In this document: positions 3,579 through 51,858 of the stretch, in pieces
How the letters are laid out: every line of letters begins with the position of its first letter
How positions within the stretch are numbered: position 1 is the stretch's first letter
Assembly (NCBI GenBank): GCA_963665235.2
Contig: CAXXLX010000001.1
Span: forward strand, 704,001 to 768,000
Length of the DNA: 64,000 bases
Reading direction: 5' to 3'
Source of the DNA: Candidatus Poribacteria bacterium
Lineage (GTDB): Bacteria; Poribacteria; WGA-4E; WGA-3G
The notes under the pieces: model-generated
The model's database searches: none
The model's input: only the letters and a program-made list of their open reading frames with translations
What the model was told of the DNA's origin: nothing
Translations under genes and position numbers: made by a program

Positions 3579-4060
3579 TACCATTTCTAATTGAAAATGT
3601 CTCTTTCTTGTAGCCTAAACTTCCAGTTTGTGCTTTGTAGTAGCCTAAACTTCCAGTTTGTGCTTTGTAGTAGCCTAAACTTCCAGTTTGTGCTTTGTAG
3701 TAGCCTAAACTTCCAGTTTGTGCTTTGTAGTAGCCTAAACTTCCAGTTTGTGCTTTGTAGTAGCCTAAACTTCCAGTTTGTGCTTTGTAGTAGCCTAAAC
3801 TTCCAGTTTGTGCTTTGTAGTAGCCTAAACTTCCAGTTTGTGCTTTGTAGTAGCCTAAACTTCCAGTTTGTGCTTTGTAGTAGCCTAAACTTCCAGTTTG
3901 TGCTTTGTAGTAGCCTAAACTTCCAGTTTGTGCTTTGTAGTAGCCTAAACTTCCAGTTTGTGCTTTGTTGTAGCCTAAACTTCCAGTTTGTGCGTTCTTG
4001 TAGCCTAAACTTCCAGTTTGTGCGTTCTTGTAGCCTAAACTTTTAGTTTGGGTCCTCCGT
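3579..4060 (+). repeat. MITE family A copy 1 (right end lost): 15 hairpin cores in 30-bp tandem units
   Basis: Leader TACCATTTCTAATTGAAAATGTCTCTTTCTTG; core TAGCCTAAACTTCCAGTTTG every 30 bp from 3611 to 4031; linker TGCTTTGTAG x11, then variants. Confidence 0.9.
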
Positions 4061-4084
4061 TAAAGGGAATTAATAAAATTTAGA

Positions 4085-4364
4085 TGGGTGTGTAAAGTTT
4101 TTGTACAAGTAGGACTTACGCATTCCCCTCCGCTCCTCTACTAGCGGGATATCGGTATTAGTCCCAGTATTCGGGCAAACAGCCCGCTCTTCAAGGACGA
4201 TATCTTTATAGAAGCACAAAACGCCCACCCCCTCTTAGTCCCAGTATTCGGGCAACCAGCCCGCTCCTCATACTAGGGGAAAACTTTTCAAACTCACGTT
4301 ATACGACACGCCGGGCGATGAATCGCCCTACTACAAACGGGTGTACAAAAACTTTACACACCCA
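4085..4364. mobile_element. MITE family D, 280 bp
   Basis: Perfect 23-bp TIR TGGGTGTGTAAAGTTTTTGTACA; ATTTAGA directly repeated on both sides (4078-4084, 4365-4371); no ORF. Confidence 0.8.
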
Positions 4365-4379
4365 ATTTAGACAAAATTA

Positions 4380-4408
4380 TTGACAGATAGCATATATAAT
4401 GTTATACT
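4380..4408 (+). promoter_or_regulatory. Sigma70-type promoter of the carH/litR gene
   Basis: TTGACA (4380) - 17 bp - TATACT (4403); a second TAGACA lies just upstream. Confidence 0.6.
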
Positions 4409-4448
4409 TGTAAAATAACAAGCGGAAAAACGAAAAAGGAAAAGGCTG

Positions 4449-5399
4449 ATGACAGCTCAACATAAACACGGTATTAAAACTGTCGCTGTTCGGACAGGAT
4501 TAACACAACTTATCATTCGGACATGGGAAAAGCGATACAACGTGGTCACACCGATGCGAACCGAAACGAATCGCAGACTCTATTCCGATGCGGATATATC
4601 ACGACTCACATTGCTTCGTCTAGCGACTGAGACAGGACATAGTATTGGACGAATAGCAAACCTATCGACTGAAGAGCTTCTGAAACTCATTGGAACAGAT
4701 GGGACGGTTATGCAGGCCGCTGCAATTGCTAAAGAGGATGTCTCACAGGAAACATCCCTTCATTTTTACATCGCTTCGTGCATCGCAGCGGTTAAGAGAT
4801 TTGAAATGCAAGTGCTTGAATCAACACTCTTCGCTGCATCAGTTGCATTTAGCCAACCCGTTTTCCTTGAAAAGTTGATTGCCCCGCTAATGCGGGAAAT
4901 TGGTGAACAGTGGAGAGCAGGCACTTTACGCATTGCACATGAACATCTTGCCACCGCAGTTGTCCGGACGCTGTTGGGCAGCATCTCTCAGGGAGCTGAT
5001 GTCCCTGCTGCAACGCCAAATTTAGTGATAGCGACACCGCGGGGCCAACACCACGAAATTGGGGCGTTAATTGCTGGAAAGACTGCAGCGGCACAGGGGT
5101 GGCAAGTTACCTACCTCGGTACCGACCTACCCGCTGAAGAGATTGTAGGGTGTGCAGCGCAAAATGGGGCAAAGGCAATCGGGTTGAGTATCATCTACCC
5201 GACAGATGACCCACATATCGCAAATGAATTACGGAAAATTCGACGCGGAATTCAAAAAGATGTTGTTCTATTTGTCGGAGGGGCGGGGGCAATCGCTTAC
5301 GAGTCTGTCATTAGTGCTATCGGTGCAGTGAGAATCAATGATATGCCGACTTTTTGCACCGAACTTGAAAATCTGCGTGCTCAGCTTATTTTAACCTAA
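4449..5399 (+). CDS. MerR-family cobalamin-binding light-responsive regulator (CarH/LitR-like)
   Basis: MerR HTH (IRTWEKRY...RRLYS), W-x9-EH motif (WRAGTLRIAHEH), B12-binding HHEIG; divergent from the crt genes. Confidence 0.88.
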   Translation: MTAQHKHGIKTVAVRTGLTQLIIRTWEKRYNVVTPMRTETNRRLYSDADISRLTLLRLATETGHSIGRIANLSTEELLKLIGTDGTVMQAAAIAKEDVSQETSLHFYIASCIAAVKRFEMQVLESTLFAASVAFSQPVFLEKLIAPLMREIGEQWRAGTLRIAHEHLATAVVRTLLGSISQGADVPAATPNLVIATPRGQHHEIGALIAGKTAAAQGWQVTYLGTDLPAEEIVGCAAQNGAKAIGLSIIYPTDDPHIANELRKIRRGIQKDVVLFVGGAGAIAYESVISAIGAVRINDMPTFCTELENLRAQLILT

Positions 5400-5545
5400 G
5401 TTGCCACATAGTAGCATAATCTTCCAGATTGTGCATATTTGTGTGCGAATTGGAAGGGAACGGGACAAATATTAGCTAATTATCAGCATATTTTCATTAA
5501 AGACGGTGTTTCCAGGTCTAAAAACTTATAAGTAGCAACTTGCGT
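5394..5545 (+). mobile_element. MITE family B copy 1 (single hairpin unit)
   Basis: TIR ACCTAAGTTGC...GCAACTTGCGT; 7-bp TSD TATTTTA on both sides. Confidence 0.85.
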
Positions 5546-6882
5546 TATTTTACAATAATCCGCTTAACCTGTCCATTGAGCCCCCCCACAGCAAGACTCC
5601 CATCGGTAGGATGGACAATCAAAGCATAAATCCAGCCATCAAGCGCGTCAATCTCATCTATAACCGCTACCGTATCCGGTTCGATGATACGGATACGCCC
5701 ATCAACACAGGTTGCAACGATTTTTGAACCCTCGTTTAACCAAGCAACGTTCAACGTCGCTGCGTCCAGTCTAGCGAACTTGACCATGCGGCCGATAGTT
5801 GGCTGCCAGAGCCGAACTGTCCGGTCATCGCTAGCGGAGGCAATCAGAGGCATCCCTGTATTGCCAGGACGCAGTGCCAGAGCATGCACAGGCATCGTAT
5901 GATTGTTCAGGCTTCTAAGCAGCTCACCAGTTGTCACGTTCCAGACGCGAACATTCCGATCGACTCCTGTACTCACGAGCGTTTCGGCATCTTGCAGGAA
6001 ACAGAGGGACGACACGCCGCGTGAATGCCCTTTCAGGTCTTGAGTCGGGGTACCGGTGCGTAGGTCCCAAAGAATGATGCGTCTGTCCAAACTTGCGGAT
6101 GCAAGTGATACCGTATTCCGCCAAGCCACCGCCATGACAGAATCGCGATGTCCCCGCAGTACACGGAGCGATTTTCCTTCCGGCCATGAAAAAATCTCTA
6201 CAGTGCCTTCAGTTGCTGGATTGCCACCACCAACCGCCACCCGGTCACCACTCGGTGAAAACGCTAGATGATGAACGTTACGCGCTTTTACCTTGATAAT
6301 TCGCTGTAGATTGAGCGTTGGCCAGTCGTAAACGTGCAATCCCGCCTGCGAAGATGCCACAACAGATTTGCCATCAGGAGAAAACGCGAGAGACGTAATC
6401 GGCGGCATAGTAGGAGGTAGGCTCTGCTGGGTCTTCCTAGCCTGCTTTTCAACAAGACTGCCCTGAATTCCCTTCCAATTCCCGTAGTCTGCTCCCGCTT
6501 CAATCCATTTTCGGATGAGGTCGGTTTGCGCTTTCGCTAAAGGCGCGCCTTCCTCTGATGGGGGCATGATACCGGTCTCACCTTCCGCTAAGGTAATACG
6601 CTGGTAAAGCAGGGAATCATCGGGCTCACTTGGGACAATAACCTCTCCGTGCAGGCTCTCCTCAATACCCTTTACGCTATCCAATTGGACACCGCCCTTC
6701 GGTTTCGTCATGGTGCCATTGGCATCCACCTTCGGCGCGCTATGACACCGGAAGCAGCTATTCTGGAGGATAGGCAAAACCTCTGTCTCAAAATCGATGT
6801 CGGTTTTGGAATCTGCTGAGATAACAGGCACAGCAAACATCAGGATAAATACAAAGCAAAATATACAATCTGCTAAATTCAT
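5545..6882 (-). CDS. Planctomycete-type cytochrome c domain + WD40 repeat protein
   Basis: DFETEVLPILQNSCFRCH (CxxCH)...IRKWIEAGA, followed by GH...WD repeats. Confidence 0.85.
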   Translation of the reverse strand: MNLADCIFCFVFILMFAVPVISADSKTDIDFETEVLPILQNSCFRCHSAPKVDANGTMTKPKGGVQLDSVKGIEESLHGEVIVPSEPDDSLLYQRITLAEGETGIMPPSEEGAPLAKAQTDLIRKWIEAGADYGNWKGIQGSLVEKQARKTQQSLPPTMPPITSLAFSPDGKSVVASSQAGLHVYDWPTLNLQRIIKVKARNVHHLAFSPSGDRVAVGGGNPATEGTVEIFSWPEGKSLRVLRGHRDSVMAVAWRNTVSLASASLDRRIILWDLRTGTPTQDLKGHSRGVSSLCFLQDAETLVSTGVDRNVRVWNVTTGELLRSLNNHTMPVHALALRPGNTGMPLIASASDDRTVRLWQPTIGRMVKFARLDAATLNVAWLNEGSKIVATCVDGRIRIIEPDTVAVIDEIDALDGWIYALIVHPTDGSLAVGGLNGQVKRIIVK

Positions 6883-6904
6883 CAGCCTTTTAATTTCCTT
6901 CTAA

Positions 6905-7560
6905 TACCATTTCTAATTGAAAATGTCTCTTTCTTGTAGCCTAAACTTCCAGTTTGTGCACTTTCTTGTAGCCTAAACTTCCAGTTTGTGCACTTTCTTG
7001 TAGCCTAAACTTCCAGTTTGTGCACTTTCTTGTAGCCTAAACTTCCAGTTTGTGCACTTTCTTGTAGCCTAAACTTCCAGTTTGTGCACTTTCTTGTAGC
7101 CTAAACTTCCAGTTTGTGCACTTTCTTGTAGCCTAAACTTCCAGTTTGTGCACTTTCTTGTAGCCTAAACTTCCAGTTTGTGCACTTTCTTGTAGCCTAA
7201 ACTTCCAGTTTGTGCACTTTCTTGTAGCCTAAACTTCCAGTTTGTGCACTTTCTTGTAGCCTAAACTTCCAGTTTGTGCACTTTCTTGTAGCCTAAACTT
7301 CCAGTTTGTGCACTTTCTTGTAGCCTAAACTTCCAGTTTGTGCACTTTCTTGTAGCCTAAACTTCCAGTTTGTGCACTTTCTTGTAGCCTAAACTTCCAG
7401 TTTGTGCACTTTCTTGTAGCCTAAACTTCCAGTTTGTGCACTTTCTTGTAGCCTAAACTTCCAGTTTGTGCACTTTCTTGTAGCCTAAACTTCCAGTTTG
7501 TGCCGTTCTTTGTTTCATTTCTAACAACCGGTAATGATAGAATAATTAATAAAAATGGTA
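6905..7560 (+). repeat. MITE family A copy 2: 18 cores in 32-bp tandem units
   Basis: Ends TACCATTT...AAATGGTA with TAA duplicated; unit TAGCCTAAACTTCCAGTTTGTGCACTTTCTTG, cores 6937-7481. Confidence 0.92.
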
Positions 7561-7563
7561 TAA

Positions 7564-9744
7564 CTAATTATTGTTCACAAATTCGTTGCAGGTTAGCAGA
7601 CTCCACACCATGTCCTCAAGGACCGGGCGTTGCGAATTGGCGGATAGGCTGTCGTCAATATGCTCTTTCCAAAACTGCTGTTCCGTATCCGTTGGATTTC
7701 GGCTGAGCGCTGCGAGATAGAACGCGTTCACAATCTCCATCGGTGATTTTCCGCTTGCTATCAATCTGTCAAGGCGACTCTCCGGAACACCGATGCGAGC
7801 GTTGAGCAGGTCACCGTTGAAGAGATGGAGTTTCCGCTGAAGGCCGCCGGTTGTACCGGTTGAATTTTCGCACGACGTTTCACGGTTGCATCTACCGAGG
7901 ATATCAAGTGCATCCGATTGAATATTCGGATTGGATAATGAGACAGCACGTGTGCCTATCGGTTCGTTGCCGTACACACTCGGTACACCGAGGACATCGG
8001 AAATTGCATCCGCTAGCACCTCCGGTTCAAGCGGTTTTCGGAGTGCATGCGAATAGAAACGTTCATCTGTCCTGTTTTGCGGGAGCGTATTTGCGCTGCG
8101 TGCATAGGTCTCGCTAAGTGCGATACGTCTGAGCATATTCCGTAGGTCGTAACCGTTCGCCACAAAATCGGCTGCAAGTTCCGTTAGTAATTCGGGGTGT
8201 GTAGCCGGATTAGTGGCACGGAAATCATCAACAGGTTCCACAAGGCCGCGTCCCATCATCGCTTTCCACAATCGGTTGACGATGGCTTTGGCGAAATAGG
8301 GGTTGTCTGCCCCTGTTAACCAGTCTACAAGTGCTATTCTGCCATCTGCAACATCGGCAGACAAAAATTGAGTCCCAGGAATTCGCGGTATCGCCTTTTC
8401 GCCAGTTGCTGGATGGATAACCTCACCTGACGGTTTTACCTTAACCACCTGTTCACCCTCTATTTTGGCAAAGATTGCGGCTAACCCGTGATAATCGTCC
8501 TGTGTCCATTTGTCAAGCGGGTGATTATGACAATTAGCGCATCGGAGCCGGGCCCCCATGAAAAGTTCACTCATGAATTCTGCCTGCTCACGTGGACCAT
8601 TGACGGTGCGGTAAAAATTCGCTGGCCCAATGTCGTGGGAATCCCCGGTTGCAAGAATAATAGAACGTGCCATTTCATCATATCCAACCCTGTCGCGTAC
8701 CTGTTCGGAAAGCCATTGGTGATAAACAGCCGCGCCTTGTGTATCGTTATTTTGGGGACGAATCCGTAGCAGTTTCGCCCACTGCAATGTCCAGTACGTG
8801 CTAAACGCATCCGACTGCAGCAAGACATCAACAACCTTTTCCCGTTTATCTCTATCTGTATCTGCAAGAAACGTAGTGACAGCCGCTGGGGTAGGAATTC
8901 GTCCTGTCAAATCGAGTGTCACCCTGCGTAGGAAGGTGGCATCATCAGCAGGCGGAGACACAGGTAAGCGTAACCTTGCAAGCAATTTAAGAATTTCCCC
9001 ATCTATGTTTTCTGTCCTTTTACGGGTATCCTGCGGTATGGGTGTGTCGTTCAAGGGGGCGATGAACTCAAGCGGGACAACCTCTGTAAGATAACGCGCG
9101 ATGATAATGTGTCGCCCGTGGCGATGCACTTTGGCAACGGCATTGACTGCGTCAATCTCAACAGCTGAAGTATCCTCTGGTGTGAAAACAGACCATCGCG
9201 TTACATCTGCTGCGGTCCCGTCTGCAAAATGAGCCGTTGCTCGGAGTTGAATAGGCGTGCCAAGATGCGTTATCACCTGTTTTTTCGGGGATATTTCGAT
9301 ACGTTCCAAACGGCGCAACGTTTCATAACGTGCCCCTTGCTGAATCCAGTTTCGGAGTAATTGCGCGCCTTCGCTATTCTCGTCTAGGACGTGCCCCCCG
9401 CCATGTCTGGTTTGGGCGGTCGGTTTTAGAACAATCAGGCTATCTTCCGGATACATCAGGTTGATGCGTCTTCCAGCAAGCTGCCGAACAATTGCTACAT
9501 AATCCGCTTGTGGATTACCGCCGAAGAGGGATAGTTTAAACTCGCCTCTCCCCGCGGCTGAACCGTGGCATGCCCCTGCATTACATCCAAACTTGGTAAA
9601 AATTGGTATCAAATCGTTTTCAAAGTCAACGCGGGCGATGTTTTGTTCCGATTCAGGATTGCTGTTTGCAAAGGTTGTATTTTCACACAAGAAAAGCGTG
9701 GCTACTAATGTTAATGCTATGAGAACTAGCTGATTTACTTTCAT
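7564..9744 (-). CDS. DUF1549/DUF1553 domain protein (planctomycete type)
   Basis: GCNAGACHG, FLRRVTLDLTGRIPT, CANCHNHP, NRLWKAMMGRGLVEPVDD motifs. Confidence 0.9.
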   Translation of the reverse strand: MKVNQLVLIALTLVATLFLCENTTFANSNPESEQNIARVDFENDLIPIFTKFGCNAGACHGSAAGRGEFKLSLFGGNPQADYVAIVRQLAGRRINLMYPEDSLIVLKPTAQTRHGGGHVLDENSEGAQLLRNWIQQGARYETLRRLERIEISPKKQVITHLGTPIQLRATAHFADGTAADVTRWSVFTPEDTSAVEIDAVNAVAKVHRHGRHIIIARYLTEVVPLEFIAPLNDTPIPQDTRKRTENIDGEILKLLARLRLPVSPPADDATFLRRVTLDLTGRIPTPAAVTTFLADTDRDKREKVVDVLLQSDAFSTYWTLQWAKLLRIRPQNNDTQGAAVYHQWLSEQVRDRVGYDEMARSIILATGDSHDIGPANFYRTVNGPREQAEFMSELFMGARLRCANCHNHPLDKWTQDDYHGLAAIFAKIEGEQVVKVKPSGEVIHPATGEKAIPRIPGTQFLSADVADGRIALVDWLTGADNPYFAKAIVNRLWKAMMGRGLVEPVDDFRATNPATHPELLTELAADFVANGYDLRNMLRRIALSETYARSANTLPQNRTDERFYSHALRKPLEPEVLADAISDVLGVPSVYGNEPIGTRAVSLSNPNIQSDALDILGRCNRETSCENSTGTTGGLQRKLHLFNGDLLNARIGVPESRLDRLIASGKSPMEIVNAFYLAALSRNPTDTEQQFWKEHIDDSLSANSQRPVLEDMVWSLLTCNEFVNNN

Positions 9745-27607: not shown

Positions 27608-27631
27608 TTCTCCCTTTTCCTTTATAGGTTA

Positions 27632-27843
27632 TACCATTTTTATTAATTATTCTATCATTACCGATTGTTAGAAATGAAACGGAGAACGACCCAAACTGGA
27701 AGTTTATGCTACAATAAAGAGGCACAAACTGGAAGTTTATGCTACAATAAAGAGGCACAAACTGGAAGTTTATGCTACAATAAAGAGGCACAAACTGGAA
27801 GTTTATGCTACAATAAAGAGACATTTTCAATTTAGAAATGGTA
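27632..27843 (-). repeat. MITE family A copy 3 (reverse orientation): 4 cores in 33-bp units
   Basis: Same leader and trailer as copies 2 and 4 on the minus strand; TTA duplicated; core TAGCATAAACTTCCAGTTTG, linker TGCCTCTTTATTG. Confidence 0.9.
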
Positions 27844-27853
27844 TTATATTATA

Positions 27854-28205
27854 CTATAGTTTGGACAATATCTGTCCGGTGGATCCCCGATTTTCAAAGC
27901 ATTTCTGATTTTTCTCAAAGTTGCTCACACACGGGCAACTTGTAGAAAATAGACTCGAATGCTCGGAAGCGCAGCCCCAGCGGGGCGGTATCTTTATAGA
28001 AAACCCAACCACACCACAACCTAGCCCCAGCGGGGCGGTATCTTTATAGATTTTACCCAAACCCCTCTTCTTTCCGCGTCCTCTGCGGCCTCTGTGCCTT
28101 CCGTGATTCAGACAACACAAGCAAACTCCACCCTTCCACCCTTCCACCCTTCCACCTATCCCTTTGACAATAACGTTACGCCCCCTAAAATTGTCCAAAG
28201 TTTAG
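27854..28205 (+). mobile_element. MITE family C copy 1 (two GCCCCAGCGGGGC hairpins)
   Basis: Ends CTATAGTTTGGACA...TGTCCAAAGTTTAG; 9-bp TSD TATATTATA. Confidence 0.85.
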
Positions 28206-28544: not shown

Positions 28545-29825
28545 TTACCGCCTCTTGGACGGTTTACTTGATATGAGTCCCGAAAACGGTGACCACGAAT
28601 CAAGTCTACATAGGTTCGGATTATACCTGATACCTACGGGGGATACCACCACCCCGACTACAGGGTTAAAAAGGTAACCCTGATACGCTGTGAGAATATT
28701 ACTCGCACCCACTACATCTCTATGACCGTGCCACCCGCATTTGGGGCATTTATATTTTCGTTTGACTGGTTTTTTGCGATTACCGCAACTTGGGCAGGTT
28801 TGAGAGGTATAGGCTTCGTTTTGGGTATCAACTTTGATACCAAGTGCTTTTGCTTTGTAGGTAATCATCTCTCTAAACTGAGAGAATGCCCACTGGTGTA
28901 ACTTCTCATTGGTTTTTCTACCGTAGTTTATGGATTGTCGGATATGCTTAATATCACCAATAACAATCGTTTCTATCTTTCGCTCTCGGCAAGTAGAAAC
29001 AAAACGTGATGTGATTTTGTGTCGCATGTCACGTAACTGCGACGCTATTTTTGCCAGGAGTTTATCTTTAGCGCGCTTAAGTTTTTTCCAACGCCGACTG
29101 CCTCGCTTGCATCTTGAGAGTTTACGGTTGAGACCCCCTTTGGACTTCTCGCGATACCGCACTTTACTGCGGTGTTCTCGTCCGTTGTAGATTTCGGCAG
29201 TGATACCGTCGAAAGCAGTGATTGGGTGTATTTCACCCATATCGACTGCAACGGCTGTCCCGTGTTTTATCTTTGGCTGTTTCGGTTGTGTTTGGTACGT
29301 TGCATGGAACTCATACGCTTTTGTTATTTTGTTGTAGACAAGGGATACTTCGGTTGGCACAATCTTATGGAATTTCTTGTCAAGCTTGATATAGAGGGCT
29401 TCCCGTCCTTGACCCATAGACAATCGGAGTCTGCCATGTTTATAGGTGATACCCGTTGCACGCCAGGTGAAAGTGTGGAATTTATATGTCCGTTTCGGCG
29501 GCTTTGCCTTGGGATTAGATTGTTTATTCGAAAAGAAAGAACGCCTCGCACCGCAATAGTCGTCTATAACTGCCTGAACAGAATGGGCATGGCAGGGATA
29601 CCGCTTAAACTTAAGATATTTCTTGAGGCCAGCGTCCGACAACCAAAAACCCTTTTTGTTGTATGTTCTAAACGCAAGTGATACCGTTTTGGAATAGATT
29701 CGCCCACCGAGACGATTTATCGCGTCTAATTCCGCTGTCGGTTTTGCTGTTGCTATAATGTAGGTTCGAAACGTTTTGGTATCCTTTTTAGACATGCTTT
29801 TGGTCCTCAATATACTTTTTGACAA
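28545..29825 (-). CDS. tnpB: TnpB RNA-guided endonuclease
   Basis: RuvC-I AVDMGE, IVIGDI, NEAYTSQTCPSCG...CPKCG zinc ribbon, RuvC-III HRDVVGA. Confidence 0.92.
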   Translation of the reverse strand: MSKSILRTKSMSKKDTKTFRTYIIATAKPTAELDAINRLGGRIYSKTVSLAFRTYNKKGFWLSDAGLKKYLKFKRYPCHAHSVQAVIDDYCGARRSFFSNKQSNPKAKPPKRTYKFHTFTWRATGITYKHGRLRLSMGQGREALYIKLDKKFHKIVPTEVSLVYNKITKAYEFHATYQTQPKQPKIKHGTAVAVDMGEIHPITAFDGITAEIYNGREHRSKVRYREKSKGGLNRKLSRCKRGSRRWKKLKRAKDKLLAKIASQLRDMRHKITSRFVSTCRERKIETIVIGDIKHIRQSINYGRKTNEKLHQWAFSQFREMITYKAKALGIKVDTQNEAYTSQTCPSCGNRKKPVKRKYKCPKCGWHGHRDVVGASNILTAYQGYLFNPVVGVVVSPVGIRYNPNLCRLDSWSPFSGLISSKPSKRR

Positions 29826-30201
29826 CTTCTAAGGAGGTGCTACCTACAGATGATATAAATTTAGAACGCGTCCACAAACAAGGCAAGCGAGATTTTAGGA
29901 ATGCCAACTCCTCACGTAACACCCTAGAGGTAAACCCTTTTATCAGCCCAACCGTCCGTGTAACTGGCACTTTTGGGGTGTTTTCTATTATCATAAGCAC
30001 GGGGTCTTCCATAACCTCGCTGGCACACACCTTAAAATCTAACTCGGTTTGTTTAGAACAGATTAGATGGTGCAAGCGTTTTTGTATCGGTTCGGTTAAA
30101 ACTTGGTGCCGATACTTCGGACACCAGACGACATGATACTGACAACTGTAAACAAGGTTTGTCTCGGAGGACCAATGCTTTTCTCCATTCTTAATAAACA
30201 T
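29788..30201 (-). CDS. tnpA: IS200-type Y1 transposase TnpA with a degenerate HUH motif
   Basis: YHVVWCPKYR, KGFTSR, LWTRS, YIEDQ; DPVL in place of DHVH. Confidence 0.88.
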   Translation of the reverse strand: MFIKNGEKHWSSETNLVYSCQYHVVWCPKYRHQVLTEPIQKRLHHLICSKQTELDFKVCASEVMEDPVLMIIENTPKVPVTRTVGLIKGFTSRVLREELAFLKSRLPCLWTRSKFISSVGSTSLEVVKKYIEDQKHV

Positions 30202-32575: not shown

Positions 32576-32855
32576 AGCGTCCTCCAGTATTCGGGCACCA
32601 GCCCGCTCCTAATTCTGTTTGTGTTGCGTCCAAGTATCCGCGAATGAAATGTTTGAATCATAGGCTTCCGCTCACCTGCCACCGTTGTTGCAGGTGTGAA
32701 AGTTAAAATTCTAGTTTGGAATTACACGTGTTGAAACAGTATACCTGAAAAATAGATGTGCGTCAAGAAAATTGAATTTACTTTGCAGTTTAATAAGGCG
32801 AATCTAAGGAAAAACGAACCGCAGGGATAGCGTACGGAGAATGCTTACTACCATA

Positions 32856-33085
32856 ACCTAAGTTGCCACATAGTAGCATAATCTTCCAGATTGTGCATAT
32901 TTGTGTGCACATAGTAGCATAATCTTCCAGATTGTGCATATTTGTGTGCACATAGTAGCATAATCTTCCAGATTGTGCATATTTGTGTGCACATAGTAGC
33001 ATAATCTTCCAGATTGTGCATATTTGTGTGCACATAGTAGCATAATCTTCCAGATTGTGCATATTTGTGTGCAAATTGGAAGTGG
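32856..33085 (+). repeat. MITE family B copy 2 (right end lost): 5 x 41-bp units
   Basis: Unit CACATAGTAGCATAATCTTCCAGATTGTGCATATTTGTGTG; GTAG at 32873, 32914, 32955, 32996, 33037. Confidence 0.9.
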
Positions 33086-33131: not shown

Positions 33132-33330
33132 CTATGGTTTGGATAATATCAGTCCGGTTGATGCCCGGTTTTCAAAGCATTTCTGATTTTTCTCAAAGTT
33201 CCTCACACAAGTCCAACTTGTAGAAAATAGACTCGAATGCACGCAAGCGCAGCCCCATCGGGGCGGAATGTTTATAGAAGCACACAACCACCCCACAACC
33301 TAGCCCCATCGGGGCGGAATGTTTATAGGA
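33132..33330 (+). mobile_element. MITE family C partial copy (left half)
   Basis: Aligns by eye with 27854-28050, including two GCCCCATCGGGGC hairpins. Confidence 0.75.
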
Positions 33331-33490
33331 TTCGATAATTGCCAGCGTTGCCAATCGCCAATTTACAATCCGCGAAATACGTGTAATCCGCGATTTGCAA
33401 GGCGAATTTAAGGAAAAACGAACCATAGGGATAGCGTACGGAGAATGCTTACTACCATAACCTAAGTTGCCACATAGTAGCATAATCTTC

Positions 33491-34731
33491 ATGAAGATTA
33501 AGAAATTAATTCGGTAATTTCTGTTTTTATGTTATCCTATTGTCCCAGGAGGTATTGTCTTATGTCAAAACGCCATGAACTTGAACTCAGTAAAGATGAA
33601 CGCCAAAGACTGATTGAACTCCGCGATACAGGGGAACCCGCTTATCTTCGGGAACGTGCGGCTGCCCTGCTAAAGATAGCCGCGGGAACTTCTCCACACA
33701 AAGTCGCCCTCAAAGGGCTGCTAAAGAAGCGAGATCCGGACACTGTTTATGCCTGGCTTCGCCGATACCAAGAAGAGGGCATTCAAGGATTGTTTCATAG
33801 ACCGGGCCGTGGCCGCAAACCCGCGTTCGCCCCCAAATCCCCCGAAGAAGCAGAAACCGAGGCGTTGACGGCTATAGGACAAGACCCGGGACAAGTCAAG
33901 GCACATCAAACGCGCTGGACGCTTCGCACGGTTGGCGAGGTTGTGCCGTGGCTTGCTAATATCTCTGTGCCGGGTATCCATCAAATCTTCTCACGCCTGG
34001 GCATCAGCTATAAGCGTGCTAGACTGTATTTGCAGAGTCCGGATACAGACTATGCCAAGAAAATCGAACGGATACAGCAAGTTTTAGAAGAGACCCATCA
34101 AAACCCACAGAACACGGCTGTGCTTTATCAAGATGAGTTCTCATTTTACCGAAACCCCACTATAGCAAAAGACTGGGCACAGACAGGGACAAAAACGCCA
34201 TTAGCCCATCAGAGTTATCAATCGGATAAAACTATTTATGGTATCGGTGCTATGAACCCCCATACAGGAGACGTTGTTTATCAGCAAGTGCCAAGCTGCA
34301 CAGTTGTAGCCCTCCATACATTTTATACCGAGATTTGCCAACGCTATCCCGACAAGCAACGGATTTATCTTATCCAAGATAATCGGGCGATACATTTTCA
34401 CGCCAATTTGATGGAGGCACTGCTGCCGCAATCGGTCTCCTTTGTGAAACCGACCCCGCCGAATTGGACCGGAAAACTTTCCGAGAAAATCGGTGAACTG
34501 ACAAAACTCCCGATTGAAATAGTGCAGCTGCCGACTTATGCGCCGTGGACAAATCCGATTGAGAAGTTATGGCGATGGGTGCGGCAATCGGTTCTGCATA
34601 TCCATCGCCTCTGCGATGAGTGGGAGACCCTCAAAGACAAGGTGCTTGACTTTATGACACAGTTTAGAGGCGGCTCACAAGCATTGCTACGCTATGTCGG
34701 ATTATTACCGAATTAATAAATTAATCTTCAT
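33491..34731 (+). mobile_element. IS630-family insertion sequence
   Basis: 28-bp TIR ATGAAGATTAAnnnATTAATTCGGTAAT (3 mismatches) enclosing a single transposase ORF. Confidence 0.9.
33562..34716 (+). CDS. IS630-family DDE transposase
   Basis: HTH with PGRGRKP; YQDEF, QDNRAIH, LPTYAPWTNPIEKLW catalytic motifs; AGGAGG RBS. Confidence 0.93.
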   Translation: MSKRHELELSKDERQRLIELRDTGEPAYLRERAAALLKIAAGTSPHKVALKGLLKKRDPDTVYAWLRRYQEEGIQGLFHRPGRGRKPAFAPKSPEEAETEALTAIGQDPGQVKAHQTRWTLRTVGEVVPWLANISVPGIHQIFSRLGISYKRARLYLQSPDTDYAKKIERIQQVLEETHQNPQNTAVLYQDEFSFYRNPTIAKDWAQTGTKTPLAHQSYQSDKTIYGIGAMNPHTGDVVYQQVPSCTVVALHTFYTEICQRYPDKQRIYLIQDNRAIHFHANLMEALLPQSVSFVKPTPPNWTGKLSEKIGELTKLPIEIVQLPTYAPWTNPIEKLWRWVRQSVLHIHRLCDEWETLKDKVLDFMTQFRGGSQALLRYVGLLPN

Positions 34732-35089
34732 CCAGATTGTGCATATTTGTGTGCACATAGTAGCATAATCTTCCAGATTGTGCATATTTGTGTGCACATA
34801 GTAGCATAATCTTCCAGATTGTGCATATTTGTGTGCAAATTGGAAGTGAACGGGACAAATATTAGCTAATTCTCAGCATATTTTCAGTAAAGCCGGTGTT
34901 TCCAGGTCTAAAAACTTATAAGTAGCAACTTGGGTTACCATATCTGCCCCATATCGTGCAGCACACAACCGAAACTGCACGCTTTCGTGCAGTTTATCAA
35001 CTGAGAGCCGTGATGTATAGACTTCAGATATTGGCATAGAAATTGCATATCATTTGATAGACATGCAAAAAGCAATTTGGAGGTCTCTT

Positions 35090-41896: not shown

Positions 41897-41936
41897 ATGA
41901 AGATTAAAAAATTAATTCGGTAATTGCTGTTTTTAT
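41897..41936 (+). mobile_element. Solo IS630 left end
   Basis: Matches 33491-33530 at 38 of 40 positions. Confidence 0.8.
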
Positions 41937-41963
41937 CAAAAATCCGTAACCCGTATTGTGCCA

Positions 41964-42354
41964 CAATCATCCAGATTGTGCCCATAGTAGCATAATCATC
42001 CAGATTGTGCGTAGTAGCATAATCATCCAGATTGTGCGTAGTAGCATAATCATCCAGATTGTTAGTAGCATAATCATCCAGATTGTGCGTAGTAGCATAA
42101 TCATCCAGATTGTGCGTAGTAGCATAATCATCCAGATTGTGCGTAGTAGCATAATCATCCAGATTGTGCGTAGTAGCATAATCATCCAGATTGTGCGTAG
42201 TAGCATAATCATCCAGATTGTGCGTAGTAGCATAATCATCCAGATTGTGCGTAGTAGCATAATCATCCAGATTGTGCGTAGTAGCATAATCATCCAGATT
42301 GTGCGTAGTAGCATAATCATCCAGATTGTGCGTAGTGGCATAATCTTCCAGATT
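41964..42354 (+). repeat. Tandem array of 27-bp hairpin units (13 units, one 3 bp short, plus degenerate ends)
   Basis: Unit GTAGTAGCATAATCATCCAGATTGTGC. Confidence 0.92.
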
Positions 42355-42499
42355 CCCTCTTCCATCCTTCCACTCTTCCCTCTATCATAGGACAAAAACT
42401 TTACACACTTGTGTTCAATTTTTTTGTTGCACAACAGTCCGAAAATTGCTATGATAGTTGCAAAGATAAGCACACCTCTTTTGATTTTCGGAGGAACGC

Positions 42500-43630: not shown

Positions 43631-43869
43631 TGAAATGTCCACGATGTGGTTCAGAGAACATCATGCCCAATTTGCGAATTCGTGATCGCTACGAGCGTGG
43701 TTTGGGACAAAGCTTAGAGGTGGAAGTGAAAGGAAACCCTAATGCCCTATTTTTTAAGAAGACGCATAGAGAAGCGTTAAGAGCTACTGTTTGTGGCGAA
43801 TGTGGGAACGTAGGGCTTTCTGTTGAGAATCCGAAGGGATTATGGGAAACTTATACCATTTCTAATTGA
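43630..43869 (+). CDS. Small zinc-ribbon protein; stop codon supplied by the MITE
   Basis: CPRC...CGEC; ATG overlaps the upstream stop; last residues TISN* are encoded by the family A leader. Confidence 0.7.
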   Translation: MKCPRCGSENIMPNLRIRDRYERGLGQSLEVEVKGNPNALFFKKTHREALRATVCGECGNVGLSVENPKGLWETYTISN

Positions 43870-44280
43870 AAATGTCTCTTTCTTGTAGCATAAACTTCCA
43901 GTTTGTGCGGTTCTAGTATCATAAACTTCCAGTTTGTGCGGTTCTAGTATCATAAACTTCCAGTTTGTGCGGTTCTAGTATCATAAACTTCCAGTTTGTG
44001 CGGTTCTAGTATCATAAACTTCCAGTTTGTGCGGTTCTAGTATCATAAACTTCCAGTTTGTGCGGTTCTAGTATCATAAACTTCCAGTTTGTGCGGTTCT
44101 AGTATCATAAACTTCCAGTTTGTGCGGTTCTAGTATCATAAACTTCCAGTTTGTGCGGTTCTAGTATCATAAACTTCCAGTTTGTGCGGTTCTAGTATCA
44201 TAAACTTCCAGTTTGGGTCTTCCGTTCTCCGTTTCATTTCTAAACAACCGGTAATGATAGAATAATTAATAAAAATGGTA
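43854..44280 (+). repeat. MITE family A copy 4: 11 cores in 31-bp units
   Basis: TACCATTT...AAATGGTA with TTA TSD; unit TATCATAAACTTCCAGTTTGTGCGGTTCTAG, cores 43886-44196. Confidence 0.92.
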
Positions 44281-45933: not shown

Positions 45934-45985
45934 GCTAAGTACATACCTATCTTCGGCATCACCTAGTAGCGCGTTCTATATCCTA

Positions 45986-46278
45986 ACGCAAGTTGCCACA
46001 TAGTAGCATAATCTTCCAGATTGTGCATATTTGTGTGCGAATTGGAAGTGAACGGGACAAATATTAGCTAATTCTCAGCATATTTTCATTATAGCCGGTG
46101 TTTCCAGGTCTAAAAACTTATAAGTAACCTAAGTTGCCACATAGTAGCATAATCTTCCAGATTGTGCATATTTGTGTGCGAATTGGAAGTGAACGGGACA
46201 AATATTAGCTAATTCTCAGCATATTTTCATTATAGCCGGTGTTTCCAGGTCTAAAAACTTATAAGTAGCAACTTGGGT
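45986..46278 (+). mobile_element. MITE family B copy 4, head-to-tail dimer
   Basis: 141-bp body repeated (second start 46127); single right TIR; TSD TATCCTA around the dimer. Confidence 0.88.
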
Positions 46279-46367
46279 TATCCTATTTGAAAAATTATGC
46301 ACCTTTTCTCGCCTGGCCCGCGTCATTATATACGAACAACTGAAGATACGTTTTCTGGAGGCATCTA

Positions 46368-47868: not shown

Positions 47869-48618
47869 ATGAAAACAACACGGAAAATTGTTGCAATTGG
47901 CGGGGGCGAGATTAAAGACCTGGAAACCGCCACCATCGACAAACGCATCGTTGAGTTGACCGGTAAAACACGTCCAAAGGCACTTTTTATTCCGACCGCT
48001 AGTGGCGACGCTCCTGGATACATTGAGACCTTTGCGGCGCGGTACGGGGGCGACTTCGGATGTGAAACATGCACCCTCACCCTAATTCAAAACCCGCCTA
48101 CATTTGAGGAGATGTCAACGTTGGTATTAGATTCAGATCTAATCTATGTTGGCGGTGGGAATACCTATAGGATGATGAAAATATGGCGGCGGTTGGGAGT
48201 GGACACTCTGTTAGCAGAGGCTGCGTCCCGGGGTATTGTCCTATCGGGTCTTAGTGCAGGCGCGATTTGCTGGTTCAAATACGGTCATAGTGATTCTCGC
48301 GCCTTCTCCAGCAGCGCGGAGTGGAACTATATCCGCGTCAGTGGATTGGGATTCATCAATGCAATATATTGTCCGCATTACCATAGCGAGAAGCGGGAGG
48401 CAGCATTTTCACAAATGCTTGCAAAACGGGGGGGTATCGGAATCGCCTGTGACAACAACGCTGCAATTGAGATTGTTGGCGAGCAGTACCGTGTGCTCAC
48501 CTCTGCGTCGAATGCAAAGGCATATAAACTCTTCAAACGTGGCGGGCAGGTCGTTACTGTAGAATTACCGCAAAACAGTGAATATACGCCTTTAGCCAAT
48601 CTCCTGAGACGAAAATAA
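47869..48618 (+). CDS. Peptidase E (S51) family
   Basis: FIPTASGD, IYVGGGNT, GLSAGAICW, CPHY. Confidence 0.9.
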   Translation: MKTTRKIVAIGGGEIKDLETATIDKRIVELTGKTRPKALFIPTASGDAPGYIETFAARYGGDFGCETCTLTLIQNPPTFEEMSTLVLDSDLIYVGGGNTYRMMKIWRRLGVDTLLAEAASRGIVLSGLSAGAICWFKYGHSDSRAFSSSAEWNYIRVSGLGFINAIYCPHYHSEKREAAFSQMLAKRGGIGIACDNNAAIEIVGEQYRVLTSASNAKAYKLFKRGGQVVTVELPQNSEYTPLANLLRRK

Positions 48619-48639
48619 AAATATATAATGGGCAGGGCA

Positions 48640-50100
48640 CTAGTGCGACGCGACACGCGGTATCATCTGTGGGTGTGCGTAAACAGTTGCGTCGAAACTC
48701 TTTTGCACAAGTTCCCACTTGATAGCTTGATAATCGGGATGTTCAGAAAGGTCGGTGTGTTCCCACGGGTCATTGTCAAGGTCATACAGTTCGCAAATCC
48801 CTTTTTGGTGGTACACAATGAGTTTCCATCGTCGGTCTCGATACATCGTTGCGTGAGTTTGGTCGGATGTCGCCAGTGCACCGAAAAATTCACATCGGAC
48901 AGCCTCCCGGTGTTGATGAATTGGTGTGTCCCCGCGCAAGAGAGACGCGAGCGAGCGGCCCTGGACATAATACGGTATATCTATCCCTAACACCTCGTAC
49001 AGGGTAGGAACGATGTCAAGGAGCTCAACGAGGACATCGCTTTTAACGTTTTGTAAAAAATGGGATGGCCATGAAATGATAAGCGGTACCCTTGCTAATC
49101 CTTCGTAAAACCTGCATCCTTTGTATGCTAATCCGTGGTCGCCAAGTGATTCGCCGTGGTCAGAAGTGAATATGATGATTGTGTTTTCACGAAGATCTTC
49201 AGCGTCAAGATAATCGAGGATGCGTCCAAATTCATGGTCAACCTGTTCAATCATGGCGTAATAGGATGCCTGCATCTTCTTATCGTCCCATTCAGAAGGG
49301 GGTTTCGCCTGCGACTGAAAGTCGATACCCGCTGCTGTTAATTTTGACTGAAAGGGTATATCGCTTTCCTGAAAGTGTGCCCCGGGTAATGTTTCTGGGT
49401 CATAGCGACGGTAATATTCCCAAGGTGCGTCAAACCCCGGATGCGGGTCGAAGGGATTGATATTTAGCATCCACGGTTGATTTTTCCTGCGATTTTTCCT
49501 GATAAATTCAATAGTTTTTTCGGTGCACCAATAGGTTTGATGGAGATGCGGTGGGATATTATCGCAATCAGGGGTCGGTTCAGGAAATCGGCCCGTATTC
49601 TTCTTCGGTTTTTGGACGACGACTCGCTGTCTCAAGAGTTCACCCAGTTCTACATCTTGTGTGCGTAACCACTCTGCGTATTCGTGCCCGAATGCGTTCG
49701 GTTTTCCGTGGTCGTGACTATATTGGAAGTAGCGATAACCGTCGTTGACGCGGTGTTCCTGTCCATCAAAAGCACTTGCGAGGTGGAGCTTGCCGATTAA
49801 TCCGCAGTCGTATCCATCTTGGGCGAGGGCATGAGAAATCAGCCGGTCTTCGTAGTATTTGGGAAAAACGGGGTTGCCGTTGCCGGTGACGCTGATAGCT
49901 GAAGGGTACATACCTGTCATAAAACTTGCACGGGACGGGGTGCAGATAGGAGATTGGCAGTACGCATGGGTGAATGCGACTGACTGCTGGACAAATTCGT
50001 CAACTCTTGGGGTGTGTATATGCGGGTTTCCTAGCGCACCGATGGTGTCAAAACGTTGTTGGTCTGTGCAATACCATAATATATTTGGGCGTTTTTCCAT
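48640..50100 (-). CDS. Sulfatase
   Basis: PNILWYCTDQQR, CTPSRAS (CxPxR), GKLH, TSDHG. Confidence 0.93.
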   Translation of the reverse strand: MEKRPNILWYCTDQQRFDTIGALGNPHIHTPRVDEFVQQSVAFTHAYCQSPICTPSRASFMTGMYPSAISVTGNGNPVFPKYYEDRLISHALAQDGYDCGLIGKLHLASAFDGQEHRVNDGYRYFQYSHDHGKPNAFGHEYAEWLRTQDVELGELLRQRVVVQKPKKNTGRFPEPTPDCDNIPPHLHQTYWCTEKTIEFIRKNRRKNQPWMLNINPFDPHPGFDAPWEYYRRYDPETLPGAHFQESDIPFQSKLTAAGIDFQSQAKPPSEWDDKKMQASYYAMIEQVDHEFGRILDYLDAEDLRENTIIIFTSDHGESLGDHGLAYKGCRFYEGLARVPLIISWPSHFLQNVKSDVLVELLDIVPTLYEVLGIDIPYYVQGRSLASLLRGDTPIHQHREAVRCEFFGALATSDQTHATMYRDRRWKLIVYHQKGICELYDLDNDPWEHTDLSEHPDYQAIKWELVQKSFDATVYAHPQMIPRVASH

Positions 50101-50270
50101 TTTTTACTCCTTTTTTGCGATGGTCTTTCCGTTTATCGATTATTTTATCAAATGTTTAGTTTCTGGTTAAGCAAAATTTTGTGTTCCGGAATTTTCGCTT
50201 GAAGGAGAACGGGTTAGGCTGGTATACTATTGTCAAAGATTTCATTGCAGGCCTAAAACTGGAGATTTTT

Positions 50271-51758
50271 ATGAAACCATTAATAGTTGTGAATATGAAC
50301 GCGCTGAGAGAGGTCTATGCGGCGGAGGCGTTGGATATTCAAAAAGCGATTGAAGCCTTCGCGCAGGCACATGACGCGAACGTGCTCGACATCGACGCGG
50401 CATACCGAGCGAAGACTGGACACCCTATTTCAGTACCAGCGTATCCTAATACTGCCCTAACAACCATAGCAAAGGAAATCAAAGCTGAAATACGCTCACA
50501 CATGGGGAATCAATTGGATACGCTCATATTGGTTGGAGATGAGACTGCTATTCCGATGTGGGAAGTCTATCTGGATGAAACGCCTATTCACACCGATTCC
50601 TTCTATGCGGATTTGGATGGCGATGGTTTGCCAGAAGTTGTCACGACACGAGTCCTCGGGAATGCCGATGCAATACAGCGACAATTGTGTGAAACCGCTC
50701 CAATTGGGGGGCCGGTGTCCACAATTCTGTGTTCGGAGGATACCCGCATACATTTGGAAACGCAGCGGTTTCTCGACGCGCTTACACAACAGGGACATGA
50801 GGTAGGAGTGCTCGGTAGAGGGGGTGAGCAATGCCTGCCGCAGTCAGATTTGATAATTCATTTCGGGCATGGAAGTCCGAAAAGTCTGAGTAATAGATTT
50901 GGGGAAACCTTTGTGTCAGCGGAAGGTATGCCAACATTGTCGCGTCATCCCATTGCGATTGTCGATGGGTGCGCCACCACGCCGCCCGGTTCAGCATTAC
51001 TCCGCGCATTTTTGAACAACGGTTGCCGTGCTTATCTCGGCAGCACTGCAACTGTGGCAGGAATGATTCCGGCACGTTACACCAATCAAATAGTGATGCA
51101 TTTTCTGGACGCTTACGAAGCGCATCCGTCGTGGCCCGTGGCGAAACTCCTCACTGCAGCACGCACCAAATACGCTACAGTCAATCGTCTTGCCGAGGCG
51201 TTATTGGAACTTGAACAGGTAGGGTCTATCCCTCAGCTCGAGCGGGGGACAAACACACACCTGCTGACGTTTCTTGAATGGCATGCTTACGGGTCACCTT
51301 ATGCCCGTTTACATCAAGGGGAGGCGCAGCGAGTTTTTAATCGGCACCCTTTGGTCCAATCTCCAGTATCCCCGCAAACAGCGGAACAAAATGGGGTTGA
51401 GGTGACCTTCGAGTTAAAAAGCACAGATGGTAAACCGATTCTTTTCCTTCGGGCAGATTGGTTGAATTCGGTTTCAGCTTGGCTCATCGTTAAGGTTCAA
51501 CAAAATGGACAGGTTTTACACCAGTTGCATGGAGCTACGAACATTATCTATCAGCATTTGGAAGACATTTGTGTCGGCGGTTATGTGGATGGAGATATGT
51601 ATCACGCTTATTGGTTATTGCCGCTGCAGCGAGAGGTAGGGCAAAACCGCCTGCGCGTCGAATTCTCTAACGGCAGAAACGGCAGAGTGGTAGTTTTACC
51701 CGAATCTGCCGTAAACATCTGGCCTGAATGGGAGACGATTTCTGCTCCCGAGGCATAG
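50271..51758 (+). CDS. Peptidase C25 (gingipain)-like protein
   Basis: ILVGD, DSFYADLDGDGLPE, HFGHGS (His) and DGCAT (Cys) dyad-like motifs. Confidence 0.65.
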   Translation: MKPLIVVNMNALREVYAAEALDIQKAIEAFAQAHDANVLDIDAAYRAKTGHPISVPAYPNTALTTIAKEIKAEIRSHMGNQLDTLILVGDETAIPMWEVYLDETPIHTDSFYADLDGDGLPEVVTTRVLGNADAIQRQLCETAPIGGPVSTILCSEDTRIHLETQRFLDALTQQGHEVGVLGRGGEQCLPQSDLIIHFGHGSPKSLSNRFGETFVSAEGMPTLSRHPIAIVDGCATTPPGSALLRAFLNNGCRAYLGSTATVAGMIPARYTNQIVMHFLDAYEAHPSWPVAKLLTAARTKYATVNRLAEALLELEQVGSIPQLERGTNTHLLTFLEWHAYGSPYARLHQGEAQRVFNRHPLVQSPVSPQTAEQNGVEVTFELKSTDGKPILFLRADWLNSVSAWLIVKVQQNGQVLHQLHGATNIIYQHLEDICVGGYVDGDMYHAYWLLPLQREVGQNRLRVEFSNGRNGRVVVLPESAVNIWPEWETISAPEA

Positions 51759-51833
51759 TTTTTACAACGTGCGCTTGATAATAAATATCCGTTTGCTCTA
51801 AACCTTTTTCATCGCGAAAAAAGCGGTATAATT

Positions 51834-51858
51834 GTAGCATAAACTTCCTAGTTTGTGC
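51834..51858 (+). repeat. Solo copy of the GTAG hairpin core
   Basis: GTAGCATAAACT-TCCT-AGTTTGTGC with no MITE ends, between convergent genes. Confidence 0.75.

Follow-up and report, generated by a model that had tools for sequence, protein, structure and literature searches.

How does one short hairpin come to stand, at scattered sites of a single bacterial genome, in tandem arrays that differ from place to place in unit length and unit number? The question is raised by a 64,000-nucleotide stretch of a Candidatus Poribacteria assembly (GCA_963665235.2, contig CAXXLX010000001.1, positions 704,001 to 768,000; hereafter the window), in which an initial inspection of the letters without database searches (the sequence-only reading) had pointed out ten sites of a hairpin that begins with GTAG. 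All ten were found within 1-3 bases of where they had been placed. The source assembly comprises 5.31 Mb in four contigs (C1 to C4), with an estimated completeness of 92.6%. The core hairpin is, by its sequence and surroundings, a GTAG-type repetitive extragenic palindrome (REP) of a system of REPs and REP-associated tyrosine transposases (RAYTs) in this bacterial family. It is carried by three unrelated families of miniature inverted-repeat transposable elements (MITEs), and its arrays probably grew in place by slippage rather than through the action of a REP enzyme.

A hairpin conserved in structure

The core is 24 nt long (GTAGCMTAAWCTTCCAGWTTGTGC) and starts with GTAG, whose G4 pairs with C24; the resulting stem has 9 bp, one of them T-G, and encloses a loop of 3 nt. 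The window holds 68 core matches at up to 2 mismatches, compared to none in any of 100 dinucleotide shuffles. In the whole genome a 21-nt core pattern was matched exactly 1,078 times, and its reversed control not once. A looser search of the genome, with up to 4 substitutions allowed, yielded 1,374 core copies at 303 hairpin loci, 128 of which are solo and 175 are arrays of 2-27 units. As single-stranded DNA the core found in MITE family B folds with -5.1 kcal/mol (z -4.8) and the canonical core of family A with -5.3 kcal/mol; a GTAGCC variant, present in two of the window arrays, reaches merely -1.9 kcal/mol.

The structure of the hairpin is conserved, and its stem is kept by compensatory change. 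This was evaluated on 71 distinct variants from the window and from the loci of relatives, which were gathered by likeness to one sequence and form a related, biased sample; 90.9% of the cells in this set are standard pairs, and changes on both sides of a pair were observed 21 times, against 6.8 +/- 2.4 after shuffling, a level that none of the 500 shuffles reached. When the 3' partner was slid by 1-3 columns, pairing fell to 21-43%. The covarying pairs are 6-22 (A-T to G-C), 10-18 (A-T to T-A) and 4-24. The second of these is the A-T to T-A swap by which the cores of families A and B differ, so both the swap and the priority of structure over sequence, as proposed from the letters alone, are borne out.

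The loop varies between species (TCC, TTT, GTT, GCC, GTG, GTC), which argues against a loop-reading protein such as CsrA. A decoy of the CsrA type, with GGA in the loops of the opposite strand as in CsrB or RsmZ, was considered and rejected on this ground. An Rfam scan of the window returned no family at gathering score.

Three unrelated MITE families as carriers

Most copies of the hairpin lie within shells that belong to three unrelated MITE families, with terminal inverted repeats (TIRs) and target-site duplications of 3, 7 and 5 bp, respectively, and without coding capacity. Family A begins with TACCATTTCTAATTGAAAATGTCTCTTTMTT, followed by the array, a degenerate last unit and a tail of about 65 nt ending in AAATGGTA. 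Of this family 130 paired copies were found, each of them containing 1-27 units. A conserved 31-nt leader precedes most of the arrays, and the degenerate terminal unit, with a TTT loop, is present in 80 copies. The target duplication is a 3-bp TWA that is identical at both ends in 119 of the 130 copies (TAA/TAA 61, TTA/TTA 55, GTA/GTA 2, TCA/TCA 1), where about half would be identical by chance, as TAA and TTA are about equally frequent. Family B is bounded by ACCTAAGTTGCCAC and GTAGCAACTTGGGT, and its 7-bp duplication is identical in 47 of 64 paired copies. The ends of family C are AACGTGAGCTTGA and TCAAACTCGCGTT; its 5-bp duplication is identical in 34 of 83 paired copies, which is weaker than for A and B. 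The shortest copies are also the commonest, with lengths of 112 bp in family A, about 152 bp in B and about 153 bp in C.

The distinction between unrelated A and B shells with duplications of different length had been made in the sequence-only reading and stands. The copy at 51834, which had been taken for a solo hairpin, does hold a core, with a 4-nt loop, but it is situated inside a MITE of family C. The claim that only the core and a linker are amplified had to be given up: members of families B and C have also been duplicated as whole elements, with periods of 92-160 bp, and amplification is therefore not limited to the core. The combination of TIRs and target duplications suggests that the MITEs were mobilised by a DDE transposase. 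Certain IS5-family and PIF/Harbinger elements typically create a 3-bp TWA duplication.

At least 15 copies of MITE A were observed, in both orientations, at an identical TWA within another repeated element, with ...CAGTTCGCAAC on one side and CATAACAGAGAACCAAAACATTTTT... on the other (for example at C1:1136298, 1313042, 1546908, 2653637, 2999751 and 4300400, and at C2:428937 and 849541). Either MITE A strongly prefers this target, or the two elements form a composite and are copied as a unit.

Copies in the window

Arrays in the window were called with Tandem Repeats Finder (TRF). The features are given below in window coordinates.

3579..4061, + strand: MITE family A, right end truncated; left end at 3579-3609, preceded by TAA at 3576-3578; 15 cores at 3610-4053, period 30, of the weak-stem GTAGCC variant (TRF array 3603-4050, period 30, 14.9 copies)
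5394..5545, + strand: MITE family B, 152 bp, single core at 5411-5434, 7-bp target duplication TATTTTA on both sides
6905..7560, + strand: MITE family A, complete, 656 bp; 18 cores, 17 identical units, period 32, TAA/TAA (TRF array 6929-7510, period 32, 18.2 copies)
27632..27843, - strand: MITE family A, complete; 4 cores, period 33, TTA/TTA at 27629-27631 and 27844-27846 (TRF array 27692-27820, period 33, 3.9 copies)
32856..33084, + strand: MITE family B, left part with the right part missing; 5-unit array, period 41 (TRF array 32867-33073, period 41, 5.0 copies)
33460..34935, + strand: MITE family B, first hairpin split by an insertion sequence (IS); two more units at 34760-34824, 7-bp TACCATA on both sides (TRF array 34731-34837, period 41, 2.6 copies)
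33490..34731, + strand: IS630-family insertion sequence in the core loop, with a transposase open reading frame (ORF) at 33529-34716; bounds accurate to about 1-2 bases
41965..42354, + strand: array of B-type cores with a 5-nt loop, period 27, 14.5 copies; an intact MITE shell is absent, and a motif resembling an IS630 end lies just upstream (about 41897-41925)
43854..44280, + strand: MITE family A, complete; 11 cores, period 31, TTA/TTA target duplication; unit 1 has GTAG, the amplified units GTAT (TRF array 43880-44215, period 31, 10.8 copies)
45986..46278, + strand: two MITEs of family B fused head to tail, one core each, outer 7-bp duplication TATCCTA (TRF array 45990-46267, period 141, 2.0 copies)
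51766..51919, + strand: MITE family C, 154 bp; one core with a 4-nt loop at 51835-51859; the 5-bp flanks mismatch

The B copy that had been reported at 33477 is thus present, with the qualification that its loop is split by the 1.24-kb IS630-family element. The left flank of this MITE, about 60 bp including TACCATA, occurs twice about 600 bp apart (32795-32872 and 33399-33476), which points to a local segmental duplication in which the flank and the MITE's left part were copied together.

The arrays at 3591-4046 and 41956-42390 can be read as spurious ORFs of 144-151 aa, and elsewhere in the genome such frames measure up to 186 aa. In annotation these arrays, several of which read as ORFs of 100-190 aa, should be mistaken neither for genes nor for CRISPRs. 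The window also contains an IS200/IS605-type unit (28545-30201) with tnpA at 29788-30201 and tnpB, of the RNA-guided-nuclease type, at 28545-29825, both on the - strand; it is unlinked to the MITE A copy 700 bp downstream.

Arrays and linkers across the genome

Genome-wide, periods of 32 and 30 bp are the most frequent. For the 145 arrays with at least three cores and a modal period of up to 45 bp, 55 distinct modal linkers of 3-18 nt were found. A length of 8 nt predominates (74 arrays), followed by 6 nt (30 arrays), and the sequences are T/C-rich, mostly variants of NCTTTATY, GTTCTT, TTTCTT and TTTGTA. The 8-nt linker corresponds to the final 7 nt of the leader of family A, CTTTATT or CTTTCTT, together with 0-2 nt that follow the hairpin. 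Since the linker copies the end of the leader, the repeat unit is the hairpin plus a short piece of its own flank. The linkers, which had been described as locus-specific, are hence not free sequence: they are related variants, largely copied from the MITE leader. Within each array the commonest unit type makes up most of the units, and across arrays the hairpin is conserved far above the linker. The arrays are bordered on either side by unique sequence, and their MITE ends and target duplications are orderly.

With long ORFs as an approximation of genes, 289 of the 303 hairpin loci are located outside genes, and 69 of these (24%) between divergent genes, compared to a background of 11%. No preference for orientation relative to the neighbouring genes was found (94 same, 92 opposite). 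On contig 1 all hairpin loci together fall into 88 strand runs, where 117 +/- 7.6 are expected. For independent family A copies the same test was not significant (48 versus 52 +/- 5, P 0.25), and the apparent regional strand bias arises because split arrays were counted repeatedly. GC skew revealed no clear replichores in this genome, and at dnaA (C1:690,635-691,126) the loci show no switch of orientation.

The hairpin as a REP and its RAYT-like partner

The hairpin is found in 18 of 40 other genomes, namely in 17 of 24 of the same family and in 1 of 16 from other families of the order. With a looser pattern, four sister genomes contain 53-102 copies each, and three of these four carry a RAYT-like gene. 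Among the matches listed, the hairpins of the sister genomes are nearly all singletons or inverted pairs 34-35 nt apart, resembling the REP doublets forming hairpins known as REPINs. The left end of MITE family A was detected in 20 of 60 other genomes of the family, in up to 149 copies, and 3 of 5 loci that were inspected are complete 112-115-bp copies with a single unit. Of 100 other genomes of the family, 27 contain head-to-tail dimers of the hairpin, and arrays are thus no peculiarity of the present assembly.

A RAYT-like match was obtained in 4 of 5 sister genomes, in open frames of 249-272 aa, and in those four genomes the AT-rich hairpin is present on both sides of the gene. A profile of these proteins retrieved 46 loci, nearly all in sequences named Candidatus Poribacteria. 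Flanking hairpins occur at 28 of the 46, with 134 hairpin matches in total against none in 20 shuffles. The upstream hairpins are mostly on the gene strand and the downstream ones mostly on the opposite strand, which is the classical REPtron layout. In addition, 25 of the 46 loci contain their own REP within the gene, on the opposite strand at +459 to +480 (for example at L041:1963-1986 and in L038 near 1966). This copy is translated in frame to QT(K)SLCY and falls into the stretch that separates the HUH motif from the Tyr helix.

The RAYT-like protein is about 248 aa long, and in 25 sequences its HUH motif (NHVH) and the motif YxLNNPVKxGLV are invariant or nearly so. Its sole match of solved structure is TnpA-REP of E. 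coli (4ER8, E 1.1e-5), with the HUH and Tyr motifs aligned. The NCBIfam model REP_Tyr_transpos gave 57-68 bits, below its cut-off of 80, and Pfam Y1_Tnp gave 20.5-27.4 bits in 3 of 4 sequences (cut-off 23). A structure prediction from an alignment of 25 sequences was too poor for use (mean predicted local distance difference test score, pLDDT, 46.8; predicted template modelling score, pTM, 0.31). Because the score lies under the curated threshold, we speak of a RAYT-like protein and not of a proven RAYT.

The proposal that the hairpin is of the REP kind is supported by the flanked gene of the sister genomes. No such gene flanked by this hairpin was found here. A genome search and tblastn did not detect the RAYT-like gene in the present assembly. 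There are 13 matches to the Y1 transposase family, mostly TnpA of IS200/IS605, and for 0 of the 12 examined was the AT-rich hairpin found within 2 kb.

A second REP class with arrays

The genome does possess a resident RAYT of another kind (C1:831715-832197; 136 bits for REP_Tyr_transpos at the cut-off of 80). On each side it has a head-to-tail array, one of 5 and the other of 26 units, formed by a GC-rich GTAG REP (GTAGGAGCGTGCTGTGCACGCGA; C1:831.5-833.1 kb). This REP is present in 450 copies in 159 clusters and is not housed in a MITE shell. All but 6 of its 82 clusters with two or more copies are arranged head to tail, at periods of 25-92 bp that differ between loci; the linkers are copies of the unique 5' flank, and TCTTCT is a conserved sequence 5' of GTAG. 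Tandem arrays are thus general in this genome.

How the arrays grow

We consider growth of the arrays by slippage-type minisatellite dynamics to be the most plausible explanation, with a probability of roughly 0.6. In the sister genomes the hairpin is mostly present as single copies or inverted pairs, and it also flanks the ~248-aa RAYT-like Y1 (HUH) gene. In the present lineage the MITEs would have spread it by ordinary cut- or copy-and-paste transposition. A unit made up of the hairpin and 3-18 nt of the leader or tail next to it would have expanded in place, above all inside family A, through replication slippage or template switching and subsequent unequal sister-strand exchange, rather than through the REP enzyme. 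We infer both this mode of amplification and the route by which the MITEs move.

That the amplification occurs in place, as had been suggested in the sequence-only reading, follows from the number of units, which differs from copy to copy between 1 and 27. The same reading had named an HUH enzyme, possibly acting by rolling-circle copying, as the amplifier, a suggestion that the data do not support. The cognate RAYT-like gene was not found here, and the arrays lack polarity: the share of non-modal units in successive fifths of 92 arrays is 0.37, 0.36, 0.28, 0.33 and 0.38. Unit variants are interleaved (e.g. ABBABBABAB, AABCAADBABCDDDCC), and some units have internal deletions. For arrays of at least two units, the number of units is unrelated to hairpin stability (rho -0.05, P 0.48). 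The largest arrays (27, 18 and 15 units, two of these in the window) are made of units whose lower stem is broken, and GTAT units reach 11 copies (window 43885-44218) and 7 copies. The B hairpin is equally stable, yet has a median of one unit, which implies that the context of the shell outweighs the hairpin. The absence of polarity, the interleaved and truncated units, growth in spite of a weak stem or GTAT, and the arrays of the second REP, which has no shell, together speak for slippage or unequal exchange and against HUH rolling-circle copying as the mode of growth. Although the cognate RAYT-like gene was not found, many arrays are 100% homogeneous, which suggests that they are young or in constant turnover. 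As the "mutant" units provided by nature (GTAT, broken stem) are still amplified, and as arrays are formed both by a REP class whose cognate enzyme was not found and by one with a resident RAYT, the choice between enzyme and slippage is directly testable.

Several observations weigh against the slippage account. Ordinary slippage leaves the 20-fold excess of arrays in this genome unexplained (849 head-to-tail dimers, compared to 41 in relative G106 and 17 in the next of the 100 relatives). Of the 145 modal linkers 110 contain the dinucleotide CT, where shuffled linkers give 91.6 +/- 4.6; the common descent of the linkers makes this a weak test. The unit is anchored in both REP classes at one end, 0-3 nt past the 3' end of the hairpin, and varies at the other, and an anchored end of this kind could result from an enzyme cutting next to the hairpin just as well as from polymerase stalling there. 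The resident non-cognate RAYT and another single-copy Y1 gene could act in trans, and at a completeness of 92.6% the RAYT-like gene itself could sit in unassembled DNA. An autonomous element with A, B or C ends was not found in this genome either; a search for TIR pairs 0.9-3.5 kb apart met only host genes between neighbouring MITEs. Finally, the array lengths are those of the assembly, and the contigs of four public runs end at the repeats, none of them spanning an array.

Some of these points would be accounted for if a Y1/HUH enzyme (a RAYT) cut beside each hairpin and copied or rejoined the units head to tail, the MITEs being only carriers; it would have to act in trans, as the resident non-cognate RAYT or the other Y1 gene might, or to have acted before the cognate gene was lost. 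We regard this as unlikely. In its support, every GTAG or xTAG hairpin class seen in this genome forms head-to-tail arrays, the resident RAYT is itself flanked by its arrays of 5 and 26 units, arrays flank the long RAYT of relatives too, CT is enriched in the linkers, and one boundary of the unit is fixed at the 3' end of the hairpin. RAYTs cut at CT 5' or 3' of the REP and are able to perform strand transfer in vitro (PMC8266576). Moreover, Bertels and Rainey proposed a "second mechanism", left open in nature, for tandem REP clusters (PMC3116915). Yet the genome richest in arrays, by a wide margin, is one in which the cognate enzyme was not found. The four sister genomes, three of them with the RAYT-like gene, mostly have single copies or inverted pairs (53-102 copies each). 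In the systems studied, cleavage is strongly reduced by changes at the last positions of GTAG or by stem mismatches (PMC8266576), while here the GTAT and broken-lower-stem units amplify well, without polarity and with truncated or imprecise units. A specific form, in which CT-type cuts beside the hairpin by a trans-acting Y1/HUH enzyme are followed by rejoining between sister copies and constitute the "second mechanism" of REP clusters, appears doubtful to us as well; if true, it would, together with the DDE-type MITEs as vehicles and an IS630-family element that lands in hairpin loops, amount to a nested mobile system of three layers around one hairpin.

Less probable still is that the arrays are selected for a host function with the unit number tuned per locus, be it as protein-binding or nucleoid sites, as terminators or insulators, or as transcript-stabilising hairpins. 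Such roles have been hypothesised for REPs (PMC3733652), promoter activity is reported for the BrickBuilt element (PMC4596501), and the extragenic position of 289 of 303 loci, their enrichment between divergent genes and the conservation of the hairpin over the linker would agree with it. The balance of orientations (94 versus 92), the free loop, the lack of an Rfam match and the relatives that manage with single units do not, and an RNA-library contig that touches a MITE end gave no evidence of array transcription. It is very improbable that the arrays, or their lengths, are artefacts that arose when long reads of a repeat-rich genome from a metagenome were assembled. Short contigs of public runs do stop at the repeats, with depth peaks at MITE ends that represent repeat pile-ups, some arrays contain odd truncated units, and a two-unit pattern has 0 exact matches in a metagenome contig collection, in which a unique 26-nt flank has 0 matches too; against this stand the 175 arrays between unique flanks, with 55 linkers, orderly MITE ends and target duplications, and comparable arrays in 27 of 100 independently assembled relatives, such as the 41 dimers of G106. 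CRISPR-like or other guide-RNA arrays come to mind on account of the leader before most family A arrays, the regularly spaced hairpin repeats, the common degenerate last repeat (80 copies) and the TnpB gene in the window (28545-29825). This reading, to which we give next to no credence, was rejected: the "spacers" measure 3-18 nt, are related between arrays and separate units of one dominant type, leader and tail are two halves of a MITE with TIRs and target duplication, TnpB belongs to an IS200/IS605 unit about 700 bp away, and no Rfam family matched.

Relation to known repeat systems

The hairpin shares with the REPtron the position of GTAG 5' of a short stem-loop, hundreds of extragenic copies and compensatory changes in the stem; the GTAG REP of Stenotrophomonas maltophilia, for instance, has 23 nt with a perfect 8-bp stem and a 3-nt loop (PMC8266576, PMC3733652). 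The sister genomes add a Y1/HUH gene between inverted repeats and inverted doublets. Unlike in a REPtron, the enzyme of ~248 aa scores under the curated threshold and often has an in-frame REP (25 of 46 loci), its gene was not found in the present genome, and most copies here are located in MITEs with TIRs and target duplications and in direct arrays instead of REPIN doublets.

Tandem reiteration of REPs together with flanking DNA is on record (Di Nocera et al. 2013, PMC3733652; PMC3116915). In P. fluorescens SBW25, 16 ordered tandem clusters of REPINs that include flanking sequence were reported, the largest with four REPINs, and Bertels and Rainey (2011), who describe such clusters beside RAYT genes among other places, infer from them a second mechanism (PMC3116915). 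In contrast to the SBW25 clusters, the present genome contains 175 arrays of up to 27 units, plus the second class with 82 clusters of at least two copies; the unit is a single REP and not a REPIN, and the AT-rich arrays are found inside MITEs. The way in which REPs come to form ordered tandem clusters has been an open question since 2011 (PMC3116915), on which this genome bears as an extreme natural case.

The BrickBuilt MITE of Porphyromonas gingivalis (Klein et al., PMC4596501) has a 23-nt minisatellite between leader and tail subunits and inverted-repeat ends. It resembles the MITEs described here in that a minisatellite of short units stands between leader and tail, in intergenic position and with a unit number that varies between copies. 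Its 19 copies have no spacer between units, and in the text consulted the unit is not described as a REP with a cognate RAYT (PMC4596501). Here, by contrast, the same unit is present in three unrelated shells as well as outside shells.

The BOX elements of Streptococcus pneumoniae (boxA-boxB(n)-boxC) likewise look mobile and repeat their middle module a variable number of times. They differ in sequence, host and module size, and we know of no GTAG hairpin or RAYT link for them.

The statement in the sequence-only reading that no description of such an arrangement was known is thus too strong, for each half of it, tandem REP clusters on the one hand (PMC3733652, PMC3116915) and a minisatellite in a MITE on the other (PMC4596501), is already in print. 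What appears to be new is that one REP resides in three unrelated MITE families, that arrays have formed on such a scale, that the cognate enzyme seems to be absent from the most array-rich genome among those searched, and that a long RAYT-like protein has a REP in its own reading frame. A literature search found no account of REPs or MITEs of Poribacteria, the single paper to mention both the phylum and REPs being a general review. The present data sketch, for the first time, the REP/RAYT biology of an uncultivated phylum associated with sponges. They also suggest that a REP can escape its dependence on a RAYT by riding in ordinary MITEs.

Further hairpins and the IS630-family element

A third hairpin class consists of xTAG and a 5-bp GC stem (such as GCCCCAGCGGGGC or GTCCCGTAGGGAC), followed by TATCTTTATAGAA. 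It forms arrays with a period of about 50 bp at many loci (in the window at 55938-56296, 4120-4290, 33250-33330 and 27960-28020; also at L007:1963-2632). One of these arrays directly abuts the single-copy gene of a 161-aa Y1 protein (C1:1178413-1178898), which suggests a second REPtron-like pair.

The IS630-family element measures 1,239 bp and is present in 6 near-full-length copies, all of which are inserted in the loop of a GTAG hairpin (window 33490-34731; C1:1687075-1688313, 1853470-1854708, 2925535-2926781 and 3591523-3592761; C4:10439-11678). Five reside in the AT-rich REP, in both orientations, and one in a palindrome of the GTAGGCGYGCTTT type. Loop-specific insertion into REPs is known for IS1397 and ISKpn1; to our knowledge it has not been described for IS630. 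Many of the 39 short copies of the end motif have the same flanks, and in one sister genome (L086) a derivative of the element is likewise situated in a hairpin loop.

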